A stretch of 64,000 bases of DNA from Cyanobacteriota bacterium. GTDB lineage: Bacteria; Cyanobacteriota; Cyanobacteriia; Cyanobacteriales; Nostocaceae. The DNA lies in NCBI GenBank assembly GCA_046045965.1, contig JBJOKS010000005.1:32001-96000 (forward strand), given 5' to 3'. The notes under the pieces are model-generated. The model made no database searches. It worked only from the letters and a program-made list of their open reading frames with translations, and was not told where the DNA came from. Of this stretch, positions 4,193-55,488 are shown in pieces; position 1 is the first letter of the stretch, and each line of letters begins with the position of its first letter. Position numbers and translations under genes: made by a program.

Positions 4193-4234
4193 GAAAAAAT
4201 TAAAGTTAAAAATAGAACATTTTTAGCAATTACA

Positions 4235-6790: not shown

Positions 6791-6934
6791 AGAAATTAAA
6801 CCCCTATCTAGAATTAATATACAATTACTGACGCTGATTTTCGCTCATTTGCTCCCTAAATCTACTGAAATAAACAAAAAAAGTGGCTCTGTACACAACA
6901 GAACCACCAAGATTTTTACAAAATTTAGATGAAA

Positions 6935-8820: not shown

Positions 8821-8821
8821 A

Positions 8822-8997
8822 TATAGCCTTCAGCAGTCAGCTATCAGGAATCAGCTTTTCAAAACTCCTATCTGACAGGAGTTAAGGTCTTTTAGCTTGT
8901 ATGAATCCGTACATAATCTAGATGGCAACCTATATACAAAGCCAGTTTTACTCCTGTACGGGCGAACGGCCGTTCGCCCCTCCTGACTCCTGCTGTA
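8822..8997. mobile_element. MITE-like intergenic element with STRR arms and a nested 20-bp perfect palindrome (GGGCGAACGGCCGTTCGCCC, 8960-8979)
   Basis: Ends TATAGC...GCTGTA; minus strand shares CAGGAGTAAAACTGGCTTTGTRTATAGGTT with the element at 20114-20241. Confidence 0.6.
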
Positions 8998-8998
8998 A

Positions 8999-9562: not shown

Positions 9563-9752
9563 TGCTCAGGTCAATCCTTTAATCTAGCTTTTAGAGCGAG
9601 TTGCTCACCTTGTGATAGCTCATTTACCTTTATTTTGACATACTGCAAATTTTATTCTGATCGCAGTTTGTGAATTTGAACTGATAGCATAAAAAATAAT
9701 CTGGAATGGCAAGAACAACTGATACCACCCAGATCATAATATCTAAAATATC

Positions 9753-10028
9753 TCAACCACCTGCAACAGCAGGAACTATACTTACTTCATCACCATCTTT
9801 CAATGTTGTTTCTGTCCCTTCTAAAAAACGGATGTCTTCGCTATTAACATACAAGTTCAGAAAGCGGCGTGGTTTTCCGGCTTCATCGCACAAACGCGAC
9901 TTGATACCAGGACAAGCTTTCTCTAAAGAGTCAAATAATTCGGAAATGTTGCTACCACTGCATTCTAAGACAGCTTGATTATTTGTAAATTTTTGGAGAG
10001 CAGTAGGGACTAAAACTGTTACGGCCAT
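9753..10028 (-). CDS. MoaD/ThiS-family sulfur carrier (ubiquitin-like)
   Basis: C-terminal [17 protein letters not shown]. Confidence 0.9.
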
Positions 10029-10122
10029 GGTTAATTATCAGTTATCAATTATCAATTATCAATTATCAGTGGTCATTGATCATTTCTTGATTTGCTCATC
10101 ACCAATGACCACTGACTAAGGA

Positions 10123-11427: not shown

Positions 11428-11464
11428 AAACTAGCTTTCCCCGTATATCCGTCAACTTTGGATT

Positions 11465-11520
11465 ACTCTAACACGACCAAAAATACACGTCAAACATACC
11501 CGATAAAAATAGTCGGGTAT
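11465..11520 (-). promoter_or_regulatory. sigma70-type promoter (TTGACG-17 nt-TAGAGT) with adjacent Rrf2/IscR-like palindrome ATACCCGACTATTTTTATCGGGTAT
   Basis: -35 at 11488-11493, -10 at 11465-11470, 8-bp perfect inverted repeat at 11496-11520. Confidence 0.6.
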
Positions 11521-11521
11521 C

Positions 11522-11627
11522 GGGGACTGGGGACTGGGGACTGGTACAAATCTTTTCTTCCCCTGCCTCCCCTGCCTCCCCTGCCTCCCCTGCTTCCCCT
11601 GCCTCTTGCCTCCTGCCTCCTGCCTCC
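11522..11627. repeat. STRR arrays (GGGGACT)n and (CCCCTGCCT)/(CCTCCTG)n
   Basis: Directly visible tandem repeats. Confidence 0.9.
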
Positions 11628-11888
11628 TCAACCACCGCTTACGGGGGGAATGAGTACGACTTCATCACCGTTTTTGAGAGGTGTGTCTGGTTCCACAAAG
11701 ATCAGATTAATGCCAAAGCGGGTAACATCACGCCATTTGCTGAGGTTTGGGTGTTCGGAGATGAGGCGATCGCACACTGCTTTGACTGGTGTATCATGAG
11801 GAAATTCCAGCATTAGTTCCGTAAGACCATAAGCCTCTTGATAGGCAGCGAACAATTTAACGGTTACAGTGATTACAGATTGAGACAT
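11628..11888 (-). CDS. moaD: Molybdopterin synthase sulfur carrier subunit MoaD-like
   Basis: VKLFAAYQEA...GDEVVLIPPVSGG. Confidence 0.8.
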   Translation of the reverse strand: MSQSVITVTVKLFAAYQEAYGLTELMLEFPHDTPVKAVCDRLISEHPNLSKWRDVTRFGINLIFVEPDTPLKNGDEVVLIPPVSGG

Positions 11889-11938
11889 ACGATAATTTTT
11901 TTTACACCCTGGTTTACTGAATTATTAAAAGAAGTGGA

Positions 11939-13267
11939 ATGCAAGCCGAATTTAACTTTTTTCAGCACTGGTATCCTCTCTCACCAATTGAAGACCTTGA
12001 TCCACAGCAGCCAGTTCCCGTAACTTTATTAGGAATTAGATTAGTTATTTGCAAGCCGAGATCATCTGAGAATTACCGGGTATTTTTAGATCAGTGTCCT
12101 CACCGTCTAGCACCCTTAAGCGAGGGTCGTATTGATGACAAAACGGGTAATTTGATGTGTAGTTATCATGGTTGGCAATTTGATCAGCAAGGTATCTGTA
12201 CTCATATTCCCCAAGCTGAAAATCCTGAAATTGTTGCTAAAAATCAACAAAATTTTTGTGTAGTTTCCCTACCAGTGCGTCAGGAACAAGATTTACTTTG
12301 GGTCTGGCCTGATGCTAAAACAGCAGAATTAGCTGCAACTACACCCCTACCTTTATCACCACAAATAGACGCTAACAAAGGTTTTGTCTGGTTTTCTTAT
12401 GTGCGTGATTTAGAATATGATTGGCAGACTTTGGTAGAAAATATAGCAGATCCTAGTCATGTACCTTTTGCTCATCATGGGGTACAAGGGACGCGGGAAC
12501 AAGGAAAGCCCATATTCATGGAAATTGTGCAATCAAACGCAAATTTAATTAAAGTAAATACTACTGGAGGCTTCCAAATAGCACTTACTTTTGAACCACC
12601 TTGTCGTTTAGAATATGAAGTTGTTATTCATAATACAGATAAACAAATTGGAATAGTTGCTTACTGTATTCCTATAGCGCCAGGTAAATGTAGAATTGTC
12701 GGTCAATTCTGCCGAAACTTTGCTCAAACAAAGCATCGTTTCACACCCCGTTGGTGGGATCATATCAAAATAAGAAATTTGGTTTTTGATGGTGATATGA
12801 TGCTGTTAAATCAGCAAGAATATTTATTGCAACAAAAACAATCAAGGGAAAGTTGGAAAACTGCCTATAAACTACCTACAAGTGCAGACCGTTTAGTAAT
12901 TGAATTTAGAACTTGGTTTGATAAATATTGTCAAGGTCAGCTACCTTGGAATGAGATAGGTATTAGTAATACAGAATCCAAAATCAATAATAAACGTCTT
13001 GAGATGTTGGATCGTTACCAACAACATACTCAGCATTGTAGTAGTTGTCGCCATGCACTGAAAAATTTCCAACGTTTGCAAATTGCTCTTTTGTCCTATT
13101 TTGTAGTTGCTGTATCTGGAGTTGCTATCCTTCCTGATGATTTGCGTATTCAGGTAGGTTTACCATTAATAATTACAGCACTTTTAGGCATGGGAGTTTA
13201 TGCTGGGTTGAAATTTTGGCTCATCCCTAAATTCTACTTTGTAGATTATGTTCACGCCAAGAAGTGA
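11939..13267 (+). CDS. Rieske [2Fe-2S] oxygenase, PaO/Tic55 family
   Basis: CPHRLAPLS...CSYHGW, ENIADPSHVPFAH, C-terminal HCSSC and TM helices. Confidence 0.9.
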   Translation: MQAEFNFFQHWYPLSPIEDLDPQQPVPVTLLGIRLVICKPRSSENYRVFLDQCPHRLAPLSEGRIDDKTGNLMCSYHGWQFDQQGICTHIPQAENPEIVAKNQQNFCVVSLPVRQEQDLLWVWPDAKTAELAATTPLPLSPQIDANKGFVWFSYVRDLEYDWQTLVENIADPSHVPFAHHGVQGTREQGKPIFMEIVQSNANLIKVNTTGGFQIALTFEPPCRLEYEVVIHNTDKQIGIVAYCIPIAPGKCRIVGQFCRNFAQTKHRFTPRWWDHIKIRNLVFDGDMMLLNQQEYLLQQKQSRESWKTAYKLPTSADRLVIEFRTWFDKYCQGQLPWNEIGISNTESKINNKRLEMLDRYQQHTQHCSSCRHALKNFQRLQIALLSYFVVAVSGVAILPDDLRIQVGLPLIITALLGMGVYAGLKFWLIPKFYFVDYVHAKK

Positions 13268-41380: not shown

Positions 41381-41421
41381 GTCAGAATCAGGATGTCCAG
41401 GATTTTCAGGATTAACAGGAT
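41381..41421 (+). repeat. Dispersed ~45-bp repeat, copy 3
   Basis: GTCAGAATCAGGATGTCCAGGATTTTCAGGATTAACAGGAT. Confidence 0.8.
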
Positions 41422-41461
41422 GATAGAGATTTGTGCGTAAATTAACCACATCTTGATTAAA

Positions 41462-41700
41462 TTATTCTTCTACGTTAAAGTCAACTTTATCGTAGATATC
41501 ACCTAACGAAATTTGACAGATAATAGATTTATTATCACCAATTTTGCAGTATTGCTCAACGTGCATTGAGTCTTGGTAAATTAAAATATATTCTTGAAAA
41601 GTGGTAATAGTGCGATAAGCAGCAAATTTTTCGTCTTGATCATAACTTTTGCTTGAATTTGATAATACCTCAGTAATCATTACTGGATTAGTAATAGGCT
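41462..41700 (-). pseudogene. Uma2-family endonuclease remnant (C-terminal part, internally shortened)
   Basis: NPVMITEVLSNSSKSYDQDEKFAAYR...QEYILI...ISLGDIYDKVDF; N-terminal half missing. Confidence 0.75.
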
Positions 41701-41900
41701 GAAGGCTGATAACTGAACTGCTAAGTCGGCGGAGCGTCGGCTGAATGCTTACGTAATGGCTTTCCGTCCGATTCATAAAAATTTATACAAACTTTTGAGA
41801 AAAAGCAAATTAAAACATGGCTGTTGTGGTAAATTACATCTAAATTATCTCAACTAATTACTACATCTAAATACCAATCTTCAATACTCTATTTTTTCCT

Positions 41901-42581
41901 ATGGATGAACAACTACAGCAACTACTTCAAGCATTCTTGACAACAGCGAGTGGTAGTATAGAAGATCAACAAGTTATAGCCAAAATACTGAAATTAATTC
42001 CTCATTTACCAGGAGTTCGCAAACACAATGATCCTCGGATTGATTATGAAGAAGCTTTTAATCTCTCATTGCAGGGGGTTTGGAAAGGAATAAGAAGATT
42101 TGCTGAGAACTCTTCCGAAAGGATTCTTAACAAAAGCGCAGAAATTAATCGGCGATTTTTTGTAGCTTGGTTCAACAGAATTTTAATGAACAAAATTTAT
42201 GATATGTATCGTCAGCAGGGAAACCAACCCTTCAGCTTAGATGCAAATATGAATGATGATAATACATTTTTAGATAATTTAGCAGATAACATCAATATAA
42301 ATACTATTGATAAATTAATTGAACAAGAAAATTTGAAAAAAAATCAGGAAATAGAAAATAAAATAAAATCTGATTTAGAAAAAAATTTAGAACAATTAAA
42401 CTGTCATCCAAGAAATTGCCCTGAATGTACCTGTCGAGAACTGATTAACAGGAGATTGTTAAAAAAACCTCCAGAAAGATGGCAAGATATTGGTGAATAT
42501 TTCCAAATCAAGTGGAAAGCTATTGAATCACATTGGAGAAGAACTTGTTTACCACTTCTACCACAATTAGGAAATATTTAA
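41901..42581 (+). CDS. Sigma-70/ECF-like factor (cyanobacterial type)
   Basis: Region-2-like YEEA...FVAWFNRILMNKIYDMYR; SLD motif; C-terminal HTH WQDIGEYFQIKWKAIESHWRR. Confidence 0.7.
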   Translation: MDEQLQQLLQAFLTTASGSIEDQQVIAKILKLIPHLPGVRKHNDPRIDYEEAFNLSLQGVWKGIRRFAENSSERILNKSAEINRRFFVAWFNRILMNKIYDMYRQQGNQPFSLDANMNDDNTFLDNLADNININTIDKLIEQENLKKNQEIENKIKSDLEKNLEQLNCHPRNCPECTCRELINRRLLKKPPERWQDIGEYFQIKWKAIESHWRRTCLPLLPQLGNI

Positions 42582-42613
42582 AGTTTTTTAATATTAAATC
42601 AGGAGCAAATGAA

Positions 42614-43564
42614 ATGACAACAAATGCCGAACTATTTTTATTAACCGTTCCTCTCACCGCAGCGAATCATGAATGTGCTAAAAGATTTGCGTCTGAACAA
42701 TCTTCTCGTGAGAAATTTAAACAAGTATATCTCAACACTTTGGCGGTTTTAGCAGTAGATAGATTTTTACGTTGGATGGAATTTGAAACAGACTTAAATG
42801 CAGCCGATAGTTGGAATCCCATAATTCGTCGTTTTAATAATGTAGCAGATTTAATGCTTCCTGAATTGGGAAGAGTAGAATGTCGTCCTATTTTACCTAC
42901 AGAAGATGTGATGATTTTACCTCCTGAAGTAATAGGAGATAGAATTGCTTATATAGCTGTAAAATTTGCTGAGAATTTAAAGCAAGTTGAATTACTAGGA
43001 TTTTTACCTGCTTCGGAAAGTATAGAAGAATCTGATATTATTGATCTTGCTGATTTGCAACCGTTAGAAGAATTAACAGATTTTTTGCTAAATTTAGATC
43101 CTATTTCTGAGGATGATTTTGAAGAAGAAGAGGATGATGAAACAGAAGGGAATAATTTGTCAATAGAAGTTTTAAGACGTTGGTTAGAACAAAATTATGG
43201 AGAAGGTTGGAAAGCTTATGAAGAAATACAGGGAGAGGGAGGATATCGTAGTGATGATAATTTTGAAGAAATCCGCCGTCGTGCTAAAGTTATAGAAATA
43301 GAAGATTATTCAGTTGTTTTATCAGTTTTATTTACTTCAGAACATAGAGAAGATTTTCGGTTAATATTTAAACTAGAGCCAGAAAAATTTGAATATGAAC
43401 TGCCAGAGGGTGTTGAACTACAATTATTAGATCAAAATGGACAATTAATACAAGAAGATAATTCAGAAGAACCTGAAATTGAATGGAATGCAAAAATAGG
43501 TACTTTGTTTAATATACAAATAATTCTTGGAGAAGCTAGATTTATAGAACAGTTTCAAATTTGA
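42614..43564 (+). CDS. DUF1822 family protein
   Basis: QVYLNTLAVLAV...DSWNP...VADL..LGRVECRP; C-terminal LPEGVELQLLD...FIEQFQI; AGGAG RBS at 42601. Confidence 0.8.
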   Translation: MTTNAELFLLTVPLTAANHECAKRFASEQSSREKFKQVYLNTLAVLAVDRFLRWMEFETDLNAADSWNPIIRRFNNVADLMLPELGRVECRPILPTEDVMILPPEVIGDRIAYIAVKFAENLKQVELLGFLPASESIEESDIIDLADLQPLEELTDFLLNLDPISEDDFEEEEDDETEGNNLSIEVLRRWLEQNYGEGWKAYEEIQGEGGYRSDDNFEEIRRRAKVIEIEDYSVVLSVLFTSEHREDFRLIFKLEPEKFEYELPEGVELQLLDQNGQLIQEDNSEEPEIEWNAKIGTLFNIQIILGEARFIEQFQI

Positions 43565-43608
43565 TTTCAAGATTGTGTATACAATTTATAGCCAAAGATT
43601 TAGATATT

Positions 43609-46600
43609 ATGCAACCAGTAATAGTTCTATATTTTGAAACAGGAAATTTTGAACAAGGATTCGTCATTAAATTACAGAGTATAAATTTCAACCAAGAATT
43701 AGTAGGAAGATTGTCAGCAAATCCTGAAATTGAAGAAGTATATCGAGAAATAAACTCTCTATATGAGGATTATCGTAAAATAAAGAGCAAATCTTTAAAG
43801 CAAAAACTTAATGAAAAATATAGTTATTTTGAAAACCAATTAAATGAATGGTTAAACTCAGAGTCATTTCAGATTATTCGTTCAGAAATAATTCAAATAT
43901 TTACTCATAATCAAAATTCCAGATTATTTATTCAAGCAACCCATCCTGTTATCTGGCAGTTACCTTGGCATCAGTGGAATATTTTGCGCGAATTAGAAAG
44001 TGTAGAAGTTACTTTATGCTTTCCTATAACTCAACAAATTAAACTATTTACACCTTCTCCATTACGAAACCGAGTGAGAATTTTAACAGTAATTGGTAAT
44101 ACTAAAGGAATTAAGGTTGAAGATGATATTACAGAAATAAATAATATAATTATTGAAAATAAAACTGAAATTAAAATAATTCCAGAACGAAATCCACAAG
44201 AATTAAATGAGATAGAACAAGATGCATCACACAAACAACAAATACAACTTTCTCGCAGAGAATTATATGATGTACTTTGGGAATATCAACAATCAGAGAT
44301 TAACGAAGATTCAGAAAAGCAGGTAAATGAAGAATCTTTTCATCCAAAAGATGTTAAATTTAACAAGAATAACATAGGATGGGATATCTTAATATTTACT
44401 GGACATAGTAAAACTGAATGGTTTAAAGATAGAAAGGGAGTTTTACAAATAAATTCTCAAGAATGGTTGAGTATAGCAGAATTACGTTCAGCAATAAAAT
44501 CAGCATTAGCTTTTGGTTTAAAATTCGTTATTTTTAACTCCTGTGATGGTTTGGGTTTAGCTAAAAATTTGGCAGATTTACAAATTCCTTATGTGATTGT
44601 GATGCGTGAGGAAGTTCATGACAACGTAGCTTCAAATTTTATCAAGAATTTCTTAAAAGAATTTGTCCAAAATGGTGAACCAATTCATATAGCATTAAGC
44701 AAAGCAAGAACCGAATTAGCAAAAATTGAAAAAAATTATCCTCTAGCTAGTTGGCTACCTGTTCTCTGTCAAAGTTCACCAAATATAACCTTAACTTGGG
44801 AAGAATTATCACAGAGTATTAATAAAAAACCTGATTGGTCAGGATGTTGTTTAACATTATTTACGTTAGATGCTCTACAACGGTTACAAAATAATATTCT
44901 GACTAAAAATAAAGGTGTAGAGATTGAAGATATTTATGTTGCACCGAATTTAGGATTACTGCAAAAATTAAAACCAGGGGATTTACAAACTCAAGTCCAA
45001 AAGCAAGTACAAATTCCTATTTATGGTGATTATCAACTTACTCAAAAGTATCAACTAAAAGAGTTTTTAGAAAAAGTAGTTCGTCGTAGAAATAGCCCTG
45101 TTAGCCAAGGTAAGCGACTAGCAATTATTGGTGAAGCTGGAGCAGGTAAAAGTTTATTGTTACAAAGGATTGGAGATTGGATTTATTGGGATTTAAACAG
45201 GCTGGTAATTTGGGTTTCTTTAGCAAGTGTCAATCGAAAACAAACATTAGATAATTATTTACTAACAACATGGCTAAACAGAGTCAAAACAGAAGCTAAA
45301 ATGTCCTGGGTTAATCAGGAACAAATAGTAGATTTATTTGCTAGTGGAAATGTCTGGCTGTTGCTAGATGGAGTTGATGAAATGAATACTAATTTTGGTG
45401 AGCCTTTAGGAGAAATAACACGCCAGATTAGTCAGTCTAATTTCATATCTCAGTCAAATATTATTTTAACTTGTCGTCTTAATGTATGGGAAGCAAATAA
45501 AAAGATATTGCAACAGTTTGATGTATTTCGTGTTTTGGACTTTACCACAGACGATACCAGCAATATGTTTAGGACAGAAAATGGTCAGGTAACTTTTTTC
45601 ATAGAACGTTGGTTTGCTAGTAATCCCAATAAAGGACAAGAACTAATTCAAAATTTGAGAATGGATAGTAATAAACAAATTAGAGATTTATCTACGAATC
45701 CTCTGCGACTATCTTTATTATGTTTAGTTTGGGAAACAGAAACTAATACAAAGGAAAAATCATTTGAAGTTTTAGAAGAACCAGAAATTTCAAAGAATAC
45801 AGATGAAGAACAAAAGTCAGAAAAAGATAAAAGATTATCAGATTTTTTAAATTCTAGAGCGGCTTTATATGATAGATTTGTACAATCCATTTATGAATGG
45901 AAAGAGAGATTATTTCGTAAAGAAAGTAGCATTATTGTTAGAACTAATGAACGTTTAACTTTAGATCAGGGTAAAATAGAACAACTAAATCGAGATTTAG
46001 CTATTTTAGCCAAAAAAGCATTTGAACATAAACTAATCCATAAATTTACATTATCCGAATTAGAAAAAGTTGCCGAAACTCAACATCCAGTTACCAAATT
46101 TATCTTACCTGTAATTAAGAATGTAGTCGCTAAAAGTGGTATAGAACAATATGATTCGCCATTTCATATTCCTCATGTGATGGCTAGTATAATCTTAAAA
46201 TCTAATTTAAATTTAGCACTGCAATTAGGTTGGCTTAACCAAGTGGGAACATCAAGATATAACTCAAATGAACCAATTTATGCTTTCTTCCATCCCACAT
46301 TTCATCAATACTTTGCTGCTAAAGCAATTGATGAAGATGAATATCAATTTTTTATAAAACACAGTACCGTTTTACCCCCACCTTATGGAACTTATCGAGC
46401 GTTTGATGCTAAATGGCAAGAAGTAATGTTGTTATGGTTTGGGAGAGAAGATGTTTTAGACCTTTATAAACAATTGTTAATTGAAGGATTATGGAAATTT
46501 AAAGATGGATGTGGTGGTTTTTATACATATCAAGCAAAGTTTTTAGCAGCAGCAGCATTGGCTGAATTTAAAAATTGTGGTGAGTTAGAAGAGCAATTAA

Positions 46601-49140
46601 CAGACAATTATGAGAAGACTAAAGTTACGGTTGGTGAAATTATAGATGAAATTGGTAAAACCAGTTTTGTATATGAAAATGAGGCAGATGAGGATGATTT
46701 GTCTTTACCATTTAAGGCATTTCAAAAACGAGCAAAAATAGCATTTGCAAGAACTAATTCTGAATTAGCTGAAAAATGGTTAATCAATTTAATTAATAAA
46801 ATTACACTAGAATCTAGTATTGCTCCTGCATTATTTTTAGATAATCTAGCTCCTGCACATAAATCAGTTATTAAGACCTTGCTAGAAGATTTTAAACAAA
46901 CTTTTGATGAAGAGTTAAACGATAACAATAAGAAAGATGCTACAGAAAGATATAAATATAATTTAATTATAAATTTAATTTTCAATGCCAAAGGTAATAA
47001 AGAAGTAATTAATCAATTGATTAAATTTCTGTCAAATCAAACCAATGAAGAGACACAGATTGAAACATTATTAGTTTTAGGCTGTATTGCTAATACTGAC
47101 GACAGAATGACAATTAATGCAACTAAATCAGTATTAGTTATAATTGAAGCTATTGATAAAATAATTCAGTTTTTTGAAAAAAATCTGATCGGTAGCGATA
47201 GTACATCTTCCAAAATTAGCAAATATAGTAGTTACTTTGGAATTATGGCTGAAGAAAATCCAAATATTGTTAATTATTTAATTAATAAACTTACTCAACT
47301 ATTGGAGAAATTATTACAACAAACTGACAAAACAGGTTATGAACAATACATAATTTTGGAAAATAAATTACATATTGCTCAAGAATTATTAGAAATTTCC
47401 CCAGTTAATCAACTGGCAATGAATACCTTAATTGAGCTTGCTTTAACTTATACTGACTACGATAGTGACACTCTAGTTTTTGGGTGTTGGAAAAAAGTTG
47501 GTAAAGATAATCCTTTCATGATTCATTCCCTCTGTAGTTATATTCAGGAATTTGATGAAACAAAGGGAACATATCGTTTTTTCTCGAAAACTTTTGATGT
47601 TTTGGGAGAAATTGGTTTTGGTGAACCTATCGTCATTGATTTTCTAAACCACCATTTAGAAATTACAGAAGATGATTCACTGCATTTTACTATTGCTAAA
47701 AATTTATTAAAAATTGATCCAGATAATATCAAAGCTATTAATACTCTCCAGGATTTAATGAAAAATGCTCCTAGTGTAGATTCGCGTGTAAGAGCAGCAA
47801 AATTATTAGCAGAATTATCTGAACAACATCGGGAAGAAGTAATTAATACTTTAATTTCTTGGCAAAAACAATATTATCAAGAAGTAATGGAATTTTTAGC
47901 CAAATCATCTATTAATACAAACGATATAGATAAATGTCTATCTAATTTAGCAAAAGAATCTGAAGCAGAATACGGGAGAGATGCAGAAAAAAGTTTATAC
48001 TTGAGAAATCTACAGCGCAAGTTTTTCTTGATTAGTGATATTTTTGGTAATTTTACTTTCCAGAAAATTGCTCGTAATTATCCACAAGTAATTGCTGCTT
48101 TAACTGAATTAATTTTGAATATTCCTGCTTCTTACACTCAATATTCTTTAGTCAAAAGTTTAGGAATGATTGATCCTGGGAATCCTTTTTGCATTAAGAT
48201 GTGGATGCAGTTCTATGATAATGAAGTAAAAGAAGATGAGCGTAAACACATTGCTACTAGCTTTTGGTCTAGAGTTTATCATGAGTGGGTGACAGAAGTA
48301 GGGGATAGAAACCGTCGTCAAATGATTATTGACGCATTAACTAAAATTATTCAATCTACAGAAGATAAAAAATTACAGTTGGATGCTGCAAAAACATTAG
48401 GTAAGTTTGATTCTGGCAATTCGTTAGCAATTTCTACATTAATTGGCTTGGTGCTTGATGGATATCCTGGGCATTTTTCCCATCCAGTAGCAGCATTACA
48501 AGAAATTATTCAGGGTGAAAAGGCAGAGATAGTTGCTATAGAAATTGTGAGAAATTTGCAGGAATTACTCAATGAAACTCATGATAATTTGGCTAAAGAT
48601 GATAATTATGATCGGCTTGAATATTTACTGGAACTATTTTGGGTTTGTGCTGAAACTTTACCATATCCTGAGTTTTATAGGGTTTGGCGAAATCTGCCTA
48701 AAAATTATCACCTTAAACCAATATATGTGGGTCTTAGTCAGTTCATGTCTGCGGCTAATTTTGCATTTGGTATTACTTATTATATTCTCCATCCTCGTGA
48801 TTTACTAATTAAGATATTCTCGATTATATTGAGTATATTGAAAGGCTTATTTTTATTGGTTGTCAATAGCTTTTCATTTCTGATTCTAGTAATCATTGCA
48901 GTAACATATCCTATATCTTGGTTTGCTAACAAATATTTAAGAATTAATATAAAACGAACTTTAATGAGCGTATTAGGTTTATTTATAGGTATTATAGGAG
49001 GCAGTATTATTTATATTATTTTACCAGCTATTGTAATGCTTGTATCGCTACCTTTAGTATTAGGATTAGCTGTAATTGCTATTCCTATAGGTTTAATTGT
49101 AATGGCAATTATTTGGATTTGGAAAAAATTTAGACGATAA
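43609..49140 (+). CDS. CHAT (caspase-like) protease - NACHT NTPase - HEAT-like repeats - C-terminal TM helices
   Basis: QLPWHQW, IFTGHS (His), IFNSCDGL (Cys), WLPVLCQ; Walker A GEAGAGKS, Walker B LLLDGVDE, NPLRLSLLC, FFHPTF; AAKTLGKFD-type repeats; hydrophobic tail ending KKFRR. Confidence 0.85.
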   Translation: MQPVIVLYFETGNFEQGFVIKLQSINFNQELVGRLSANPEIEEVYREINSLYEDYRKIKSKSLKQKLNEKYSYFENQLNEWLNSESFQIIRSEIIQIFTHNQNSRLFIQATHPVIWQLPWHQWNILRELESVEVTLCFPITQQIKLFTPSPLRNRVRILTVIGNTKGIKVEDDITEINNIIIENKTEIKIIPERNPQELNEIEQDASHKQQIQLSRRELYDVLWEYQQSEINEDSEKQVNEESFHPKDVKFNKNNIGWDILIFTGHSKTEWFKDRKGVLQINSQEWLSIAELRSAIKSALAFGLKFVIFNSCDGLGLAKNLADLQIPYVIVMREEVHDNVASNFIKNFLKEFVQNGEPIHIALSKARTELAKIEKNYPLASWLPVLCQSSPNITLTWEELSQSINKKPDWSGCCLTLFTLDALQRLQNNILTKNKGVEIEDIYVAPNLGLLQKLKPGDLQTQVQKQVQIPIYGDYQLTQKYQLKEFLEKVVRRRNSPVSQGKRLAIIGEAGAGKSLLLQRIGDWIYWDLNRLVIWVSLASVNRKQTLDNYLLTTWLNRVKTEAKMSWVNQEQIVDLFASGNVWLLLDGVDEMNTNFGEPLGEITRQISQSNFISQSNIILTCRLNVWEANKKILQQFDVFRVLDFTTDDTSNMFRTENGQVTFFIERWFASNPNKGQELIQNLRMDSNKQIRDLSTNPLRLSLLCLVWETETNTKEKSFEVLEEPEISKNTDEEQKSEKDKRLSDFLNSRAALYDRFVQSIYEWKERLFRKESSIIVRTNERLTLDQGKIEQLNRDLAILAKKAFEHKLIHKFTLSELEKVAETQHPVTKFILPVIKNVVAKSGIEQYDSPFHIPHVMASIILKSNLNLALQLGWLNQVGTSRYNSNEPIYAFFHPTFHQYFAAKAIDEDEYQFFIKHSTVLPPPYGTYRAFDAKWQEVMLLWFGREDVLDLYKQLLIEGLWKFKDGCGGFYTYQAKFLAAAALAEFKNCGELEEQLTDNYEKTKVTVGEIIDEIGKTSFVYENEADEDDLSLPFKAFQKRAKIAFARTNSELAEKWLINLINKITLESSIAPALFLDNLAPAHKSVIKTLLEDFKQTFDEELNDNNKKDATERYKYNLIINLIFNAKGNKEVINQLIKFLSNQTNEETQIETLLVLGCIANTDDRMTINATKSVLVIIEAIDKIIQFFEKNLIGSDSTSSKISKYSSYFGIMAEENPNIVNYLINKLTQLLEKLLQQTDKTGYEQYIILENKLHIAQELLEISPVNQLAMNTLIELALTYTDYDSDTLVFGCWKKVGKDNPFMIHSLCSYIQEFDETKGTYRFFSKTFDVLGEIGFGEPIVIDFLNHHLEITEDDSLHFTIAKNLLKIDPDNIKAINTLQDLMKNAPSVDSRVRAAKLLAELSEQHREEVINTLISWQKQYYQEVMEFLAKSSINTNDIDKCLSNLAKESEAEYGRDAEKSLYLRNLQRKFFLISDIFGNFTFQKIARNYPQVIAALTELILNIPASYTQYSLVKSLGMIDPGNPFCIKMWMQFYDNEVKEDERKHIATSFWSRVYHEWVTEVGDRNRRQMIIDALTKIIQSTEDKKLQLDAAKTLGKFDSGNSLAISTLIGLVLDGYPGHFSHPVAALQEIIQGEKAEIVAIEIVRNLQELLNETHDNLAKDDNYDRLEYLLELFWVCAETLPYPEFYRVWRNLPKNYHLKPIYVGLSQFMSAANFAFGITYYILHPRDLLIKIFSIILSILKGLFLLVVNSFSFLILVIIAVTYPISWFANKYLRINIKRTLMSVLGLFIGIIGGSIIYIILPAIVMLVSLPLVLGLAVIAIPIGLIVMAIIWIWKKFRR

Positions 49141-49210
49141 AGATTGAGTAATTGAACAATAACATCCCTAACTTCTTGAATATCCGGTTTCCAAAACCCT
49201 TGTATATACT

Positions 49211-49250
49211 TTTTATGAAACATTTATACGTTTTATGAAATATTTATACG
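49211..49250 (+). repeat. Tandem 20-bp duplication TTTTATGAAA(C/T)ATTTATACG x2
   Basis: Directly visible, 1 mismatch. Confidence 0.85.
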
Positions 49251-49810
49251 TTATTGGTCAGAAATATCCAAAATTACAGTATAAGTATAAAAAAATACTT
49301 TGCATAACTATTTTAGTTTTTCCGTTGCCTAACCTAATTATATCAATTCCCCATTCTCAAACCTGATTTTACCATAGGTATTAACACATAAAATCATCAG
49401 GTTGGAAGTAGAAAACAAAAGAAAAAATAAAAATTATGCCAAGGTTTTATAAAAATGATTTATGCTGCTAACATAGAAAAAAAGAGAAGTTGATCATCTT
49501 CTCTGAAACTACAGTTTGACACCAACCAAATAACTGTTATTATTTATTAATATCTTTGCGTCTCATCTCAATTCATACTTCTGAATCTTTGCGATTACTA
49601 TTATTATCTAAATACTTACTAACGAATTAGTAGGTATAGGAAAGTGAATAGCTAATTTTCGCAACATCAAAAATTTTTCCAGTAAATGAATAAAAAGAAA
49701 ATATTAAGCCAATAGCTATCTTAATGGTTTATATATTTTCGCTGACTTAATTTTTACTATCTGAGTCGCTACCAACCAACAAACAACATCAATTATCAGG
49801 ATAAATGCCA

Positions 49811-50173
49811 ATGAATATCACAGGAAAAAAAGCCCTGTTCAACAACCAAAGCATCTTACAAAATTTTGCTTTTGGTGAAGAAATTGACGAACAGGCTGCG
49901 GAAATCATTTCTGGTGGTGTGGAGAGATTCACTCTGAAAAATGCCACACAACAAGCGATTATTTACACAGTAGATGACGTTGCATGGATCATACAACCTG
50001 GCGAAGAACATAGAGTTAGTACCGACATGGGGGGGAAAATAAGATTTGATGGAGATACTCGAGACAATAGATTAAGCGCAAAAGGATATAACCTCAGAGA
50101 TTCTGGAAGATATGTATTTTACAACTCTTCCCAGAATAATTCTAATAGAATTGACTTATATCGTGAAGCTTAA
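49811..50173 (+). CDS. Double-glycine-leader secreted protein 1
   Basis: 36-aa leader ending EEIDEQAAEIISGG; start 49811 chosen by alignment with its paralog. Confidence 0.8.
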   Translation: MNITGKKALFNNQSILQNFAFGEEIDEQAAEIISGGVERFTLKNATQQAIIYTVDDVAWIIQPGEEHRVSTDMGGKIRFDGDTRDNRLSAKGYNLRDSGRYVFYNSSQNNSNRIDLYREA

Positions 50174-50291
50174 TCTTCTGGAAAAATTGCCGTTGGTTTT
50201 TGATTAAAGCCAACATCATTTATTTCATTTGTTTGCAACCGACCGAGAAATATTGACCAATAAACTCAACTAGATTTCAGGAGTAACTGAA

Positions 50292-50657
50292 GTGAGTATT
50301 ACTATTGCCTCCTCTTTTTTACACAACCAAAGAATTTTAGAAAATATTGCTTTGGTAGAAGAAATTGACGAACAAGCAGCAGAAATCATTTCTGGAGGTC
50401 AATCTGCAAATTTGCTGAGTAAAGAAATATATGCTTTGGATGATGGAAACGAGGAACCAAAATTATACAATCCCAATAATCCCAATAATCCCAATAATCC
50501 TGAAGAACGTGAAGATCCTGAAGACCCTAATCAATCTGCTTCACAACTATTGGGAGGATCTGTGCAGCAAGCTAATTTTGGATTTGGCCAGGACAGAAGA
50601 GGGAGAAGAAGATACGGATACAGAGATAGAAACAGAAACAGAAATCGTTACTGTTAA
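50292..50657 (+). CDS. Double-glycine-leader secreted protein 2 (low-complexity core)
   Basis: GTG start after AGGAG; 36-aa leader with identical EEIDEQAAEIISGG. Confidence 0.8.
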   Translation: MSITIASSFLHNQRILENIALVEEIDEQAAEIISGGQSANLLSKEIYALDDGNEEPKLYNPNNPNNPNNPEEREDPEDPNQSASQLLGGSVQQANFGFGQDRRGRRRYGYRDRNRNRNRYC

Positions 50658-50781
50658 TTAGGGTTTGTTTATAACGATCAACCCTCAAGTTCTACAGATT
50701 CATAACAGCCAATAATCACTTTTTTGACTGCGTAAATCCTCTTCTTTCACTGTATTTTCGCTTCCAGAATTACGCCAGTCA

Positions 50782-52938
50782 ATGAAATATCAAATTGTCT
50801 TACAACACAGTGAAGAAGACTGTGGTGCAGCTGCTTTAGCTACAATTGCCAAATATTACGGACGCACTTTTACCCTCAACCGTGTACGTGAAGCTGTGGG
50901 TACTGGTGCAAGAGGAACTACTTTATTAGGATTAAAGCGGGGTGCGGAAACATTAGGATTTCATACCCGACAAGTTAAAGCTACTCCTGAACTCATTAAC
51001 CAATTAAATCAAGCGCCTTTACCTGCTATCATTCATTGGAAAGGCTACCATTGGGTAGTATTATACGGACAAAAGGGCAAAAAATATATCATTGCTGACC
51101 CTGGTGTGGGTATCCGTTACCTGACTCACCAAGAGTTAATCACAGGTTGGAGTAATGGGGTGATGTTGTTACTCCTTCCTGATGAAAGTCGTTTTTATCA
51201 ACAAGAATCAGATAATATTGGCGGTTTGGGGCGTTATTTGCAACGGGTTTATCCCTATCGGTTTATTTTAGCCCAGGCGATCGCCATGAATATCGCCATC
51301 GGTATGCTTTCTCTCGCATCACCTTTTATGATGCAGTTACTCACCGATGATGTTCTCGTGCGGGGAGATACCCAACTATTAACTACCGTCGCTATCGGTG
51401 TAATTACCCTCAATTTAATTAAAAGCGCCATTAGTTTAGTACAATCTCATTTGATTGGTCATTTTGGACAAAGATTACAATTAGGATTAATCCTAGAATA
51501 TGGACGTAAACTCTTACATTTACCCTTAGCTTATTTTGAAGGAAGACGTAGTGGAGAAGTAGTAAGTCGCATTGCAGATGTTCACGCTGTAAATAATTTA
51601 GTTTCTCAAATTGTCTTAGGATTACCTAGTCAATTTTTTATTGCTATAGTTTCCTTGGGTTTTATGCTTTTTTACAGTTGGGAATTAACTATAGCTTCCA
51701 TATTTGCATTTATGATTATTACTGGTATTAACTTATTATTCTTACCAGCAATCCGCAGAAAAACTCGCAATATGATTGTTTCTGGTACAGAAAATCAAGG
51801 TTTTTTAGTAGAAACATTTAGAGGAGTACAAGTTTTAAAAACCACCCAAGCTACACCCCAAGCGTGGGAAGAATATCAAGGTAATTTTGGTCGTCTTGCT
51901 AACTTGGGTTGGAGTACGATGCAATTAGGACTTTATAGCAGTACAATCACAAATATTCTTTCTACATTTATTAATATCGGTATTCTTTGGATTGGTAGTT
52001 ATTTAGTCATTAATCGTCATTTAACTATCGGACAATTGATTGCTTATAATAGCATGAGTGGCAATTTTCTCGGCTTTTTAAGTTCGGGAATTGACTTAGT
52101 AGATGAATTTATCACTTCTCAAATAGTTATTCAACGTCTGACAGAAGTTATTGAAGCTACCCCAGAAGATGAAAATGATGTCAAAAAGCAATGGGTAGAA
52201 ATTCCTGAAAATGCAGATATTACTTGCACGGAAGTTAATTTTCATCATACAGGTAGAGTAGATTTATTGCAAGATTTTTCTGTAATTATTCCCGGCGGTC
52301 AAGTAATTGCTTTAATTGGTAAATCTGGATGTGGTAAAAGTACCTTAGCTAAATTGATTACAGGATTATATCAAATTCAATCAGGCAATATTCGTTATGG
52401 TTGTTATAATCAACAAGATTTAGCTTTAGAATGTTTACGAAATCAGGTAGTTTTAATTCCCCAAGAACCCCATTTCTGGAGTCGTTCAATTTTAGATAAT
52501 TTCTTATTTAGTTATGCTCATATTAGTTTTGAGGAAGTTGTAAAAGCCTGTCATATTACGGGTGCTGACGATTTTATCAGCGAATTACCAGATAAATATC
52601 AAACTGTTTTAGGAGAATTTGGTGCTAATCTTTCTGGGGGACAAAAGCAAAGATTAGCCATAGCGAGAGCGATAGTTACTGATCCACCAATATTGATTTT
52701 AGATGAATCTACTAGCGCCCTTGATCCAGTGAGTGAAGCACAAATATTAGACCAGCTTTTAGAGTATCGTCACGGTAAAACTACTATTTTAATTAGTCAC
52801 CGTCCGCGAGTCATTCGTCGTGCAGATTGGATTGTGTTTTTAGAAAAAGGACGTTTAAAAATTCAAGGTACACCAGGAGAGTTGTCTAAAGTTGCTGGTG
52901 AACATTTAGATTTTTTAGATGATGTTATTTTGAGATAA
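50782..52938 (+). CDS. Peptidase C39-containing ABC transporter (PCAT)
   Basis: QHSEEDCG (Cys), HWVVL (His), IADP (Asp); GKSGCGKS, LSGGQKQR, ILDE. Confidence 0.95.
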   Translation: MKYQIVLQHSEEDCGAAALATIAKYYGRTFTLNRVREAVGTGARGTTLLGLKRGAETLGFHTRQVKATPELINQLNQAPLPAIIHWKGYHWVVLYGQKGKKYIIADPGVGIRYLTHQELITGWSNGVMLLLLPDESRFYQQESDNIGGLGRYLQRVYPYRFILAQAIAMNIAIGMLSLASPFMMQLLTDDVLVRGDTQLLTTVAIGVITLNLIKSAISLVQSHLIGHFGQRLQLGLILEYGRKLLHLPLAYFEGRRSGEVVSRIADVHAVNNLVSQIVLGLPSQFFIAIVSLGFMLFYSWELTIASIFAFMIITGINLLFLPAIRRKTRNMIVSGTENQGFLVETFRGVQVLKTTQATPQAWEEYQGNFGRLANLGWSTMQLGLYSSTITNILSTFINIGILWIGSYLVINRHLTIGQLIAYNSMSGNFLGFLSSGIDLVDEFITSQIVIQRLTEVIEATPEDENDVKKQWVEIPENADITCTEVNFHHTGRVDLLQDFSVIIPGGQVIALIGKSGCGKSTLAKLITGLYQIQSGNIRYGCYNQQDLALECLRNQVVLIPQEPHFWSRSILDNFLFSYAHISFEEVVKACHITGADDFISELPDKYQTVLGEFGANLSGGQKQRLAIARAIVTDPPILILDESTSALDPVSEAQILDQLLEYRHGKTTILISHRPRVIRRADWIVFLEKGRLKIQGTPGELSKVAGEHLDFLDDVILR

Positions 52939-53112
52939 ATTAATTTTTACATTACTTTTTACATCTGCGTATTTTATGACTCCTCATTTTCAAACATTAG
53001 CCAAAAAATCAACAGATTATAAAATGTATTAAATATATTAAATATATTTTTTGTGTATCTATCTAATTTTGTTGTTTAATCATCATTAAAATTTAAAATG
53101 ATTGAGTTTCTG

Positions 53113-53229
53113 ATAACCAATAACTAATAACAAATAACCAATAACTAATAACTAATAACCAATAACCAATAACTAATAACTAATAACTAATAACTAATGA
53201 CTAATGACTAATGACTAATAACTAATAAC
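53113..53229. repeat. STRR (ACTAATA/ACCAATA/ACTAATG)n
   Basis: About 16 tandem heptamers. Confidence 0.9.
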
Positions 53230-53236
53230 TATAATT

Positions 53237-54739
53237 ATGGCTAAAGACTCTGACTCATTAAACCCCATTCAAACCGATGAATTTCTCCCACCTATTAGTC
53301 ATTGGACTACCTATGGTGGACTTTTTATTCTCTGTGTTTTAATATTAGCAATTCCCGTATCTGCACTGACAAAATATAAAGTCACAGTTAAAGGACAAGG
53401 AGTAGTTCGTCCATCAGGAGAATTGCGAATTGTGCAAGCGGCCACCGAAGGTCAAATTAGGCAAATTTATGTCAAAGAAAATCAAGTTGTGAAAACTGGA
53501 AATGCAATAGCTATTATTGATGACTCTCGGTTACAAACTAAAAAAAGTCAATTACAAACTAATATTCAACAAGCGAATTTACAACTTGTACAAATTCATG
53601 CTCAAATTCAAAATTTAAACTTGCAAATTAACGCCGAACTTGATAAAATTAATCGAATTATTAATGCTGCTGAAGCTGAATTGAGCGATCGCCTCCGTCA
53701 ATATCAGGATAAAAAAATTACCACAGATTCTGAACTTCAGGAAGCTCAAGCAAACGTTCAAATTGCTCAAGAAGAATTAAAAATAGGACTAGCCAGATTA
53801 AAAATAGAACAAGCAAATTTGCAATCAGCCGAAGCAGTTTTGAATACAGCAAAATCCAAGCAAGAAAGATATGAAAGCGTAGCGCAAGCAGGAGCATTAT
53901 CGAAAAATCAAGTAGAAGAAGCACAACTAGCGACTAAACAGCAAGAACAAGCAGTAAAAGCCCAAAAATCAGTAATTGAAGCCCAAAAACAAACAATTAC
54001 CAAACTAGAGAAAGCTGTATATGTTGCCATCACCAGAAAACAGCGTGCTAAAGCAGCTATTAATCCCAGTCATGCAGAAGTAAAAATCGCCATTGAACGT
54101 ATAGCCCAAGAAAAAGCAGCAGGAGAAAGTAACAAAGCAGCCTTAGAAAAAGAACGTCAAATGACAATTAAACAAAAAGTAGAAATTGAAAAACAGCTAG
54201 AACGGGATATTAGAGAACTCAAACAAGTAGACATAGAAATAAATCAGACCACTATTACCGCAACAGCGGATGGTATAATTACGCAAATAAACCTGCGTAA
54301 CCCTGGACAAACCGTGCGAACTGGGGAAGAAATATTACAAATAGTCCCCAGTGATGCGAAACAGATCATCAAAGCAGCAGTAGCATCAGAAGATAAAAAC
54401 AAACTGAAAATTGGTCAACCCGTGCAGATGCGAGTTACCGCTTGTCCTTACCCGGATTATGGTACACTTAATGGTAAAGTTGAAGCAATTTCACCAGATG
54501 CCATTGCACCGCCAAAAAAATCAACAGAGGAATCAGTTACTAATAACACCAGTCCCAAAGCCACAGTACCAGGTACAATTTATGAAGTGACCATTGAACC
54601 ACAAAACCTAGTTTTAGGTACAGGTAAAAATTTGTGTCACATTCAACTAGGAATGGAAGGAAGAGTAGATATAATTTCCCGTGAAGAAAGCGTACTGCAA
54701 TTTTTCTTGAGAAAAGCCAGATTAATAGCAGATTTGTGA
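53237..54739 (+). CDS. HlyD-family membrane fusion protein
   Basis: N-terminal TM, VQAATEG, long coiled coil, CPYPDYGTL.G.V..ISPD. Confidence 0.93.
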   Translation: MAKDSDSLNPIQTDEFLPPISHWTTYGGLFILCVLILAIPVSALTKYKVTVKGQGVVRPSGELRIVQAATEGQIRQIYVKENQVVKTGNAIAIIDDSRLQTKKSQLQTNIQQANLQLVQIHAQIQNLNLQINAELDKINRIINAAEAELSDRLRQYQDKKITTDSELQEAQANVQIAQEELKIGLARLKIEQANLQSAEAVLNTAKSKQERYESVAQAGALSKNQVEEAQLATKQQEQAVKAQKSVIEAQKQTITKLEKAVYVAITRKQRAKAAINPSHAEVKIAIERIAQEKAAGESNKAALEKERQMTIKQKVEIEKQLERDIRELKQVDIEINQTTITATADGIITQINLRNPGQTVRTGEEILQIVPSDAKQIIKAAVASEDKNKLKIGQPVQMRVTACPYPDYGTLNGKVEAISPDAIAPPKKSTEESVTNNTSPKATVPGTIYEVTIEPQNLVLGTGKNLCHIQLGMEGRVDIISREESVLQFFLRKARLIADL

Positions 54740-54765
54740 TAGTGTTTTCTCATCATCAGGAAAAC

Positions 54766-54925
54766 GGCAGCATCCCAAATGTGTAAGTTTATTTTTTTGA
54801 ATCTTGCAATTGCTACAAAGCTTGATATGAATGAAGCGCAAAGAACGCAAAGAACACAAAGTTAAGAGGGTTCAAAAGAGTTTTTGGTGTTGCTGTGGTT
54901 ATGTTTTCAAAATTGGGATGCTCCC
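54766..54925. mobile_element. MITE-like element with terminal inverted repeats AGCATCCCAA / TTGGGATGCT
   Basis: Perfect 10-bp inverted ends about 150 bp apart; internal (AACGCAAAG)-like repeats. Confidence 0.6.
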
Positions 54926-55020
54926 AGAAAAACATTATCTGCGTTTATCTGTGTTTATCTGCGTTTAATGCCAAATTTCTGCACCTCACTAGGACGGGAA
55001 AAGTAGTCATAATTTAAAAT

Positions 55021-55455
55021 TTGACACTCCCCGACCTAAACGTGCGGGGATTCTTGGTTCAACGAGTCCACTTAGATTAGAACCCTTGCGGTGTCTAAGC
55101 CAGAGGTGGTTCTCTCCCCAAGCGTTACTTTCCCTCTGCCCGAAGGTAGTTGTATTGCTACAAATTTTGCTTGAGTTAATTCTGTGTCGTCTAGTACCTG
55201 TAAATCTTTTACCTACTTCCAGGTGATACCAGAACTACGAAGTAGAACCCCATAGATTTAGTTGTCAAGGTACAGATTGCCGTTAGGCAGTTAGGTTTTA
55301 TACAGGTTGATTACCGTTCCTGTTGAGATAATTATAGCATAGGTGACTGAGGCGTAAACGCCTCAACTGGTTTTCATCCCTGCTATCAAGGAAGGTTAAG
55401 TTTTGGAGCGTGGCGGAAAAACTTAACCTCAAGGGTTTTCAGCCTATTTTCTTAT
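55021..55455 (-). mobile_element. Non-autonomous IS200/IS605(tnpB)-derived element with no ORF
   Basis: Minus strand ends AAGAATCCCCGCACGTTTAGGTCGGGGAGTGTCAA (tnpB-type right-end hairpin) preceded by tnpB-3'-like ACTACCTTCGGGCAGAGGGAAAGTAACGCTTGGGGAGA; left-end-like AAAACCCTTG...CAGGGATGAAAA. Confidence 0.7.
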
Positions 55456-55488
55456 AAAATAAAGATGTGATCAAAGTAAATCAAAACC

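Follow-up and report, generated by a model that had tools for sequence, protein, structure and literature searches.

The 64,000-nucleotide stretch of DNA analysed here (hereafter the window) comes from contig JBJOKS010000005.1 of a Nostocaceae genome (GCA_046045965.1), and at positions 41901-54739 it harbors seven open reading frames (ORFs), all on the + strand, namely a trio of putative signalling genes followed by a four-gene protein export cassette. The trio opens with the gene for a divergent, probable extracytoplasmic function (ECF)-like sigma factor of 226 amino acids (P0001; 41901..42581), an assignment that draws on a weak profile match together with fold and family evidence. It is followed by a DUF1822 protein (P0002; 42533..43564; PF08852, E 1.9e-56), the probable start of which is the ATG at 42614 (residue 28), and by a large protein with an EACC2-type N-terminal module, CHAT, NACHT and HEAT domains, an NCC-H domain and a hydrophobic tail (43609..49140, in an ORF that opens at 43561). 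The cassette comprises two double-glycine (GG)-leader proteins recognised from their translations (P0004, 49805..50173, and P0005, 50292..50657), a Peptidase-C39 ABC exporter (PCAT) of 718 amino acids (50782..52938; PF03412, E 2.2e-36, with ABC_membrane and ABC_tran) and a HlyD-family membrane fusion protein of 500 amino acids (53237..54739; HlyD_3, Biotin_lipoyl_2 and TIGR01843, the last with E 6.4e-43). A first-pass annotation of this DNA had listed seven co-oriented genes with these domains, and ORF calls and Pfam agree with it. They also agree on the flanks: dnaK, dnaJ and a partial Uma2-family ORF (a putative restriction endonuclease of 104 amino acids; 41462..41776, - strand; PF05685, E 2.1e-8, covering profile positions 81-145 of 172 only) lie to the left, and genes for a J-domain protein, DUF3143, DUF29, uppS and a DAC-domain protein to the right.

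The same annotation had all seven genes inserted between these flanks, which holds for the trio but not for the export genes. Nucleotide homology to G098, one of two syntenic relatives (the other being G160, of the same genus), breaks at window position 41415 and returns at 49328 (blastn against G098 and G160), so that the insertion spans approximately 41416-49327 and comprises the Uma2 fragment and the genes for the sigma-like, DUF1822 and CHAT-NACHT proteins. GC content is 0.28-0.33 from about 41.5 to 50 kb and 0.40-0.46 outside. Both relatives lack the block at this position and retain the order dnaK-dnaJ, two to three cargo genes, PCAT, HlyD, J-domain protein, DUF3143, uppS and DAC, with 85-98% protein identity and no sigma, DUF1822 or CHAT match in that neighbourhood; in G160, dnaJ and the first cargo gene are only about 390 bp apart. 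The four export genes are therefore syntenic residents. No direct repeats beyond chance flank the inserted block. A ~70-bp element at its right edge (49328-49396) occurs once in the window and twice in G098 (at ~11310-11385 and ~11100 of locus L018, about 200 bp apart), and a 20-bp tandem repeat lies beside it at 49205-49252.

The resident half appears to have kept its own upstream region. About 480 bp 5' of the first cargo gene are 88-94% identical to G098, and this region includes the top-ranking + strand sigma-70-like site of the 14-kb region, a TTGACA-16-TATTAT match with TG (49516..49543; 11/12 positions in a consensus scan), about 260 bp 5' of the cargo start. The site is nearly unchanged in G098, which has no trio at this place; it is a consensus match only, of putative function, and sigma-70-like sites in the region were not enriched over shuffled sequences. 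As far as alignment can tell, the sequence preceding the cargo genes, sigma-70-like site included, is older than the trio insertion; the trio block entered the genome as one piece, beside an export cassette that is an ordinary resident with its own older promoter region.

The cassette has all the parts of a C39 exporter system, that is a C39 domain with its Cys, an ABC exporter, an adaptor HlyD and GG-leader substrates. The leader ...EEIDEQAAEIISGG is found on both small proteins. In P0004, 38 leader residues ending in GG precede an 84-residue domain that matches no Pfam or NCBIfam model and falls into only unnamed cyanobacterial clusters in the Atlas, while in P0005 the same leader, common to cargo paralogues in five other genomes, precedes a low-complexity Asn/Pro- and Arg-rich tail that matches no family in Pfam or NCBIfam. 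The N-terminus of the PCAT, QHSEEDCGAAALATI, bears the usual Cys, which we take to be the catalytic one; the PCAT is 86-98% and the HlyD protein 85-97% identical in G098 and G160. When 301 genomes of the phylum were searched with cargo protein 1, relatives turned up in 6, the window's own genome included, all of them in the window's family, and the cargo-PCAT-HlyD arrangement surrounds all five other copies (G098, G160, G034, G050 and G140). Around none of these five cassettes was the trio detected, and in G034, G050 and G140 the cassette sits elsewhere. With E-values of 3e-8 to 6e-25 the same queries do find a second, far more divergent trio in the genome of the window, so the search around the cassettes was sensitive enough.

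Two repeat features border the last cassette gene. The heptamer ATAACTA is repeated 17 times at 53113-53231, immediately 5' of the HlyD start, and many other 7-bp arrays occupy intergenic gaps of the window. The gap between the HlyD and J-domain genes (54745..55485), only 143 bp long in G098, is a mosaic of dispersed short repeats resembling miniature inverted-repeat transposable elements (MITEs), with 46 further matches elsewhere in the same genome; these include a ~320-bp unit in five copies, one of them partial (72-92% identity), and a ~160-bp unit in about nine copies (71-78% identity). The MITE or insertion sequence remnants that had been noted to the right of HlyD are thus borne out as such a mosaic.

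Just as the cassette occurs without the trio, the trio occurs without the cassette. Among 389 genomes of the family, one, from another genus (G660), carries a close relative of the window's DUF1822 protein, and its trio has the same order, with the sigma-like protein 56%, DUF1822 58% and the CHAT-NACHT protein (1810 amino acids) 55% identical; its DUF1822 protein aligns from residue 28 of P0002. The neighbours of this trio are unrelated to those in the window (a STAND-TPR protein, xseA, a PIN protein and nadA), and no relatives of dnaK3, the cargo, PCAT or HlyD lie within 34 kb of it. The second trio of the window's genome (sigma-like protein of 248, DUF1822 of 310 and CHAT protein of 748 amino acids) lies in a 20-kb stretch that was inspected and contains no exporter. 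At this locus (L001; G000:C2:70001-90000, with 5686-7997 and 8364-12920 listed), four small co-oriented ORFs of 159-201 amino acids that match no family and an ankyrin-repeat protein lie 5' of the trio, possibly as accessory or target genes, and a CAAX/Rce1-like protease follows it.

Two surveys place the trio in a broader context. The first drew on 301 genomes of the order, from which the 60 best non-self matches to DUF1822 were taken with some 10 kb of sequence on each side (several loci being cut by contig ends); they were examined with hidden Markov models (HMMs) that had been iterated from proteins of the window. In 59 of the 60 loci the gene directly 5' of DUF1822 on the same strand is sigma-like, the 60th being divergent. 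Downstream of DUF1822, 39 loci encode a protein with an N-terminal CHAT domain and 8 more a TPR-...-CHAT protein with CHAT at the C-terminus, which gives CHAT in at least 47 of 60; at least 3 of the other 13 loci stop at a contig edge. None of the 60 has a NACHT domain like that in the window. The second sample comprised 78 loci seeded on the CHAT-NACHT family, 64 of them with a CHAT ORF, and DUF1822 lies directly 5' of CHAT in 48 of these 64 and, by Pfam, in L167 as well; the DUF1822 HMM missed at least this one canonical DUF1822, so that the counts of this sample are lower bounds. Larger sigma-like proteins missed by the sigma HMM pass the Pfam Sigma70_r4 cut-off in L132, L139, L155, L156, L162 and L167. 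Sigma, DUF1822 and CHAT thus stand as a conserved unit, as had been proposed. In L063, L134, L153 and L187 several CHAT, DUF1822 and sigma genes are packed into 20 kb, which suggests local duplication of the module.

The proposed linkage of this unit to an export cassette did not survive the same surveys. A C39 exporter was seen in 1 of 60 loci of the first sample (L107) and in 3 of 64 of the second (L152, a fragment, L156 and L162), so that of the 124 trio or CHAT loci in both surveys, 4 have one within about 10 kb. C39 domains are present in 99 of 101 genomes of the order, and their 295 matches in these 101 genomes correspond by our arithmetic to about 1% of 20-kb windows. The neighbourhood survey that the first-pass annotation had called for therefore finds the two halves together at a rate near background, and the conserved cargo upstream region in a relative that has no trio at this place agrees with this. 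L156 (Nostoc linckia z4 scaffold35.1, 70-12325) carries HlyD, a C39 ABC exporter, TPR-CHAT, sigma, DUF1822 and N-terminal-CHAT genes on one strand and is the only other locus seen in which the exporter is co-oriented and contiguous with the trio; its sigma-like protein has 547 amino acids and two Sigma70_r4 stretches. Taken together, the locus is probably composed of two independent units that are neighbours by chance, namely a caspase-gated sigma switch of the kind predicted by Kaur et al. (2021) and a resident double-glycine export cassette.

The CHAT-NACHT protein is a putative sensor protease. Its ORF has 1859 codons and the recorded product 1843 amino acids, which fits the conserved Met17 that marks the likely start in an alignment of 34 relatives; DUF1822 lies directly 5' with a 4-base overlap. 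Pfam places CHAT at residues 116-398 (E 1e-8) and NACHT at 520-672 (E 5e-14), followed by HEAT and by NCC-H at 1682-1709, and hydrophobic stretches at 1747-1857 make up the last ~110 residues. The intact His/Cys dyad read from this protein of about 1840 residues stands: among the 34 aligned relatives, 33 keep H282 and 31 keep C328 (C312 when counted in the 1843-residue product). The translation contains a Walker A motif (GEAGAGKS) and a Walker B region (LLLDGVDE). The ~100 residues before CHAT hold conserved positions such as W97 and L98 across the 34 relatives, and this module is called EACC2 by analogy. The closest relative of the whole protein is 55% identical, and the C-terminal regions of relatives carry nSTAND1-WD40, pentapeptide, AAA_16, TPR or NACHT instead. 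The sequence thus shows intact catalytic motifs, a conserved gene order and a block that moves as one piece.

The sigma-like protein is more difficult to classify. P0001 stays below the curated cut-off of TIGR02937 (E 6e-5; 22.7 bits, where 42.9 are required) and scores E 0.015 against Pfam Sigma70_r2. Its family profile (A1) matches SigH (5zx2_F) with E 5.6e-4, and its AlphaFold2 model is all-helical (predicted local distance difference test, pLDDT, 88.4) and retrieves sigma factors as best rows in Foldseek, all at E >= 6e-3. Larger paralogues encoded 5' of DUF1822 pass Pfam Sigma70_r4, for example with 56 bits. The label 'sigma-like' is thus weaker than first stated: it draws on family profile, fold rows and paralogues, and no curated cut-off is reached. 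Residues 168-178, just before the predicted sigma-4 helices, form a Cys/His cluster (C-H-P-R-N-C-P-E-C-T-C), of which the family consensus retains C-H-P-R and one further Cys; this may be a metal or redox site.

For the DUF1822 protein, modelling points to a partner of the sigma-like protein. The P0002 model (pLDDT 83.5) consists of an alpha/beta N-domain (37-190) and a C-terminal beta-sandwich (247-342), separated by an acidic linker that is disordered (194-208, pLDDT <50). The window's sigma-like protein was co-folded with DUF1822 residues 28-343 in three runs, alongside three controls, using alignments of our own built from the sampled loci (61 sigma-like and 62 DUF1822 proteins). The pair scored 0.80 (runs 0.79-0.80) and the best of the 3 controls 0.00; among solved complexes 116 of 157 attain a mark of 0.80, among mismatched pairs 2 of 215, a calibration that is only rough with own alignments. 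The runs share at least 57% of contacts, with partner pLDDT of at least 76, and the predicted interface joins residues 89-113, 131-155 and 185-223 of the sigma-like protein, i.e., both sigma domains and their linker, to residues 37-186 of DUF1822 only. Among the predicted contacts are those of sigma residues 185-194 with DUF1822 residues 97-102 and 130-136. This supports binding of sigma by the DUF1822 N-domain and is in line with the role of sigma holder, or anti-sigma factor, for which DUF1822 had been put forward.

The N-domain itself would belong to a nuclease-like fold. An exhaustive VIA-align comparison matched P0002 residues 53-194 to the homing endonuclease I-Ssp6803I (2ost_A; Z 9.8, root-mean-square deviation 3.3, 118 residues aligned), to the Hjc resolvases 1ob8_A (Z 8.3) and 1gef_A (Z 8.2) and to four more nucleases (Z 6.8-7.4), so that 7 of the 11 best rows are PD-(D/E)XK nucleases; the background best Z of the tool is 7-8. 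Foldseek of the DUF1822 model against the PDB gave nothing at E <= 1e-3, its best rows being generic Ig-like sandwiches. A search of profile A2 against PDB sequences returned a designed protein as its sole row, no stretch of which passed alone, and was treated as spurious. Within the aligned DUF1822 family D106 is conserved in 61, E116 in 62 and C117 in 62 of 62 proteins, and the next position is Arg (R118) in 52 and Cys in 8 of them rather than the usual Lys; the D106/E116 hairpin was mapped to catalytic positions from secondary structure and not by residue-level superposition. The model thus suggests that the fold is restriction-endonuclease-like and bears a D...E-C-R motif that is near-invariant. 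As for the C-terminal beta-domain, each of the 39 loci with an N-terminal-CHAT protease has it, whereas the 13 short forms of DUF1822, those of all 8 TPR-CHAT loci among them, lack it. It is suggestive that this domain tracks protease type, a pattern to be read with the reservation that related sequences share such traits.

From these parts the following working may be proposed for the trio. The nuclease-fold N-terminal domain of DUF1822 would hold the divergent ECF-like sigma factor, as the predicted complex has it. The CHAT-NACHT protein, anchored in the membrane, would use its NACHT NTPase and HEAT repeats to sense a signal and would oligomerise as STAND proteins do, a behaviour that is established for the class and extended to this protein by analogy. 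Ligand-driven NACHT assembly would then activate the N-terminal CHAT protease, for which the C-terminal beta-sandwich of DUF1822 could serve as docking site by contacting its constant N-terminal module. CHAT would cut DUF1822, the most plausible site being the disordered acidic linker that separates the two domains, and the cut would free the sigma factor to direct transcription of its targets. We infer CHAT activation, DUF1822 cleavage and sigma release from the STAND and CHAT families and from CRISPR-linked precedents.

Several points weigh against this picture of a separate, sigma-releasing trio. The co-orientation of the genes and the absence of a strong + strand terminator between 49140 and 49805 would allow read-through into the cassette, and a full C39 exporter does occur near the trio in L107 (divergent), L156 (one strand) and L162 (convergent); the 4 of 124 loci may amount to at most a weak excess over the ~1% background, with no recurrent linkage. 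The assignment of P0001 as a sigma factor is weak, lying below every curated cut-off, and the co-fold expresses model confidence with own alignments and hence predicted binding only. With the near-invariant D106...E116-C117-R118 on its nuclease-like fold, DUF1822 could be an enzyme and not just a passive anti-sigma factor. L113 and L115 are full-length CHAT-NACHT relatives with neither sigma nor DUF1822 beside them, so the NACHT form does not always work through the sigma-DUF1822 pair. In their place 5' of CHAT-NACHT stand a 150-residue ORF of no family (L113) and a LuxR-helix-turn-helix plus TPR protein (L115), which may be alternative output partners.

A cognate promoter motif of the sigma factor, finally, was not definable by k-mer, footprint or two-part searches. 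The k-mer TGCATAAA occurs in 16 of 63 regions upstream of sigma genes, a count inflated by close relatives. After removal of near-duplicates (44 regions) a two-block motif search gave nothing usable, and the contexts of TGCATAAA were inconsistent in spacing. A phylogenetic footprint of the window's sigma upstream region against that of G660 showed no clear conserved block, and the two-part words common to the sigma and cassette upstream regions are A/T runs only.

Of the alternatives to sigma release by DUF1822 cleavage, the one that survives best, though we consider it unlikely, is that DUF1822 is itself an effector nuclease of PD-(D/E)XK type, held in check or targeted to DNA by the sigma-like protein and released by CHAT, with transcription control secondary or absent. 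The matches of residues 53-194 to I-Ssp6803I and the Hjc resolvases and the (near-)invariant D106, E116 and C117 with a frequent R118 are what such an effector would have, the sigma-like protein is too divergent for curated sigma models, and restriction-endonuclease-fold effectors are found in related conflict systems, according to the text of Kaur et al. (PMC8195603). On the other hand, the third motif position is Arg or Cys and lacks the usual Lys, the catalytic mapping comes from secondary structure only, and Z scores of 8-10 are only modestly above the tool's background. The predicted interface, moreover, embraces both sigma domains in the fashion of an anti-sigma factor, and larger paralogues of the upstream protein have a bona fide Sigma70_r4.

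Both roles might also be combined. DUF1822 could represent a class of anti-sigma factors that is new in having a restriction-endonuclease fold as its base, perhaps still catalytic, and an NLR-like, NACHT-activated CHAT protease would by cutting the acidic linker release a private sigma factor together with a nuclease whose active face the sigma factor had covered. We regard this as a speculative proposal of about the same low likelihood as the effector nuclease; if true, such a two-output system would be a CRISPR-independent bacterial counterpart of Craspase signalling and of NLR-caspase pathways.

It is less probable again that the protease cuts the sigma factor itself, or only itself by autoprocessing, and that DUF1822 acts as an adaptor or as an inhibitor of the protease. 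An activated PCaspase of Haliangium cleaves a sigma factor and a separate inhibitor protein in the account of Steens et al. (preprint), and 'autopeptidase activation' was proposed by Kaur et al. (PMC8195603), as their text puts it. The co-variation of the DUF1822 C-terminal domain with the N-terminal module of the protease and the disordered linker both fit a docked substrate instead, and in the type III-E and Calp precedents set out in that preprint it is the partner of the sigma factor that is cut and not the sigma factor.

Least credible is a circuit of all seven genes, in which the freed sigma factor would switch on the GG-leader proteins and their exporter for threat-induced secretion: one strand throughout, no strong terminator before cargo 1 and an exporter within 10 kb of the trio at three other loci (in L156 all on one strand) favour it, but the cassette lies without the trio at the same place in two genomes and elsewhere in three (5/5), the sequence upstream of the cargo with its sigma-70-like site was in place before the insertion, no cassette accompanies the nearest trio (G660), a C39 gene is missing from the neighbourhood of 120 of the 124 loci surveyed, and the sigma and cassette upstream regions share only A/T runs. 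The seven-gene arrangement is an accident of insertion, and the secretion circuit can be dropped.

Read as a sigma switch beside an unrelated cassette, the locus draws attention to a signalling module that, though unexplored, ranks among the most common in filamentous cyanobacteria: of 61 genomes of the family, 58 contain DUF1822, a single genome having as many as 21 matches, and it is found in 212 of 301 genomes of the order. The trio parallels the sigma factors whose release by proteases has recently come to light in type III CRISPR systems. The window offers a compact, intact and horizontally moved copy with a NACHT sensor. The predicted sigma-DUF1822 interface names residues to mutate, and the nuclease-like fold and the co-variation of domain and protease translate into concrete hypotheses. 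What is new here, subject to the models on which it draws, is the co-fold support for a sigma-DUF1822 complex, the nuclease-like N-domain with its D...E-C-R motif and a C-terminal domain that appears to track protease type.

Searches for known defence systems gave few matches. PADLOC defence-system models matched none of the first five proteins of the locus, and among the 37 ORFs of the window no Cas effector model was matched, the sole Cas-labelled match being to a generic DEDDh exonuclease model; no CRISPR-like array was found in the 64 kb. About 40 kb from the locus, at 1399-3359, a 423-residue AAA ATPase matches defence models of AbiLi, AriA and PtuA type (best E 2e-19), and with the abutting ORF of 229 residues it may form a small defence pair.

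Double-glycine C39/HlyD export clusters are widespread in cyanobacteria. The cassette in the window resembles them in its C39 domain with Cys, its ABC exporter, its HlyD protein and its two GG-leader substrates, and differs in that its cargo domains belong to no named family and are restricted to the 6 of 301 genomes noted above.

Among protease-controlled sigma factors, three studied cases are listed in the preprint of Steens et al., all tied to type III CRISPR or to CBASS, namely TPR-CHAT/Csx30/CASP-sigma, CalpL/CalpT/CalpS and SAVED-CHAT/PCaspase/PCc-sigma. With type III-E Craspase (Csx29, Csx30, Csx31 and CASP-sigma/RpoE), as presented there, the trio shares a CHAT protease tied genetically to an ECF-like sigma factor and its binding partner, cleavage of which releases the sigma factor in III-E (Steens et al., preprint), and a subset of DUF1822 loci has the TPR-...-CHAT form, with CHAT at the C-terminus. 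The window nonetheless has neither a Cas effector nor an array, and hence no Cas7-11/gRAMP association, and the trigger domain is a NACHT NTPase here and an RNA-guided complex there. P0001 matches the III-E sigma model NF041236 with E 1.1e-3 and 19 bits against a cut-off of 100, which does not make it a member of the CASP-sigma family. DUF1822 gave no sequence match to NCBIfam models, and the Csx30 chain was absent from the fold-search rows, a likeness still being possible. The Calp and SAVED-CHAT/PCaspase systems likewise use a sigma factor, released or cut by a protease, as output of an immune sensor, but differ in their cyclic-oligoadenylate SAVED sensors, in the protease class of Calp and in the partners involved.

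The closest description in print is computational. Kaur, Iyer, Burroughs and Aravind (eLife 2021; PMC8195603) reported EACC2-caspase proteins with neighbouring ECF sigma and DUF1822 genes, in which a constant EACC2 module and caspase domain precede a highly variable C-terminus that includes STAND NTPases and multi-transmembrane regions; according to their text, sensing would lead to autopeptidase activation and a sigma-mediated step, and the systems are enriched in filamentous cyanobacteria. The trio in the window shares the N-terminal module with CHAT, the variable C-terminus, the adjacent DUF1822 and sigma-like genes and the proposed sensing-protease-sigma logic. Of the features that define the kind, the CHAT His/Cys pair with its preceding module, a variable C-terminal sensor and the adjacent DUF1822 gene are all present, and for the adjacent ECF sigma factor there are the SigH profile match (E 5.6e-4), weak fold rows and Sigma70_r4-positive paralogues in the same position, the protein itself staying below all curated cut-offs. 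The first-pass annotation had presented the system as undescribed, a claim that gives way to this earlier prediction, whereas full-text literature searches, with supplements and most subscription journals outside their reach, returned no experimental study of the trio. Differences concern DUF1822, called a TPR protein in the text of Kaur et al. and modelled here as a nuclease-like alpha/beta domain with a beta-sandwich, and its partner, since the text passages of that paper considered here contain no prediction of sigma-DUF1822 binding. The copy in the window is further set apart by its combination of NACHT, HEAT, NCC-H and a hydrophobic tail and by an unusually divergent sigma factor. The trio is, in sum, a NACHT form, with a very divergent sigma factor, of a kind of system that had already been predicted in print (Kaur et al., 2021).

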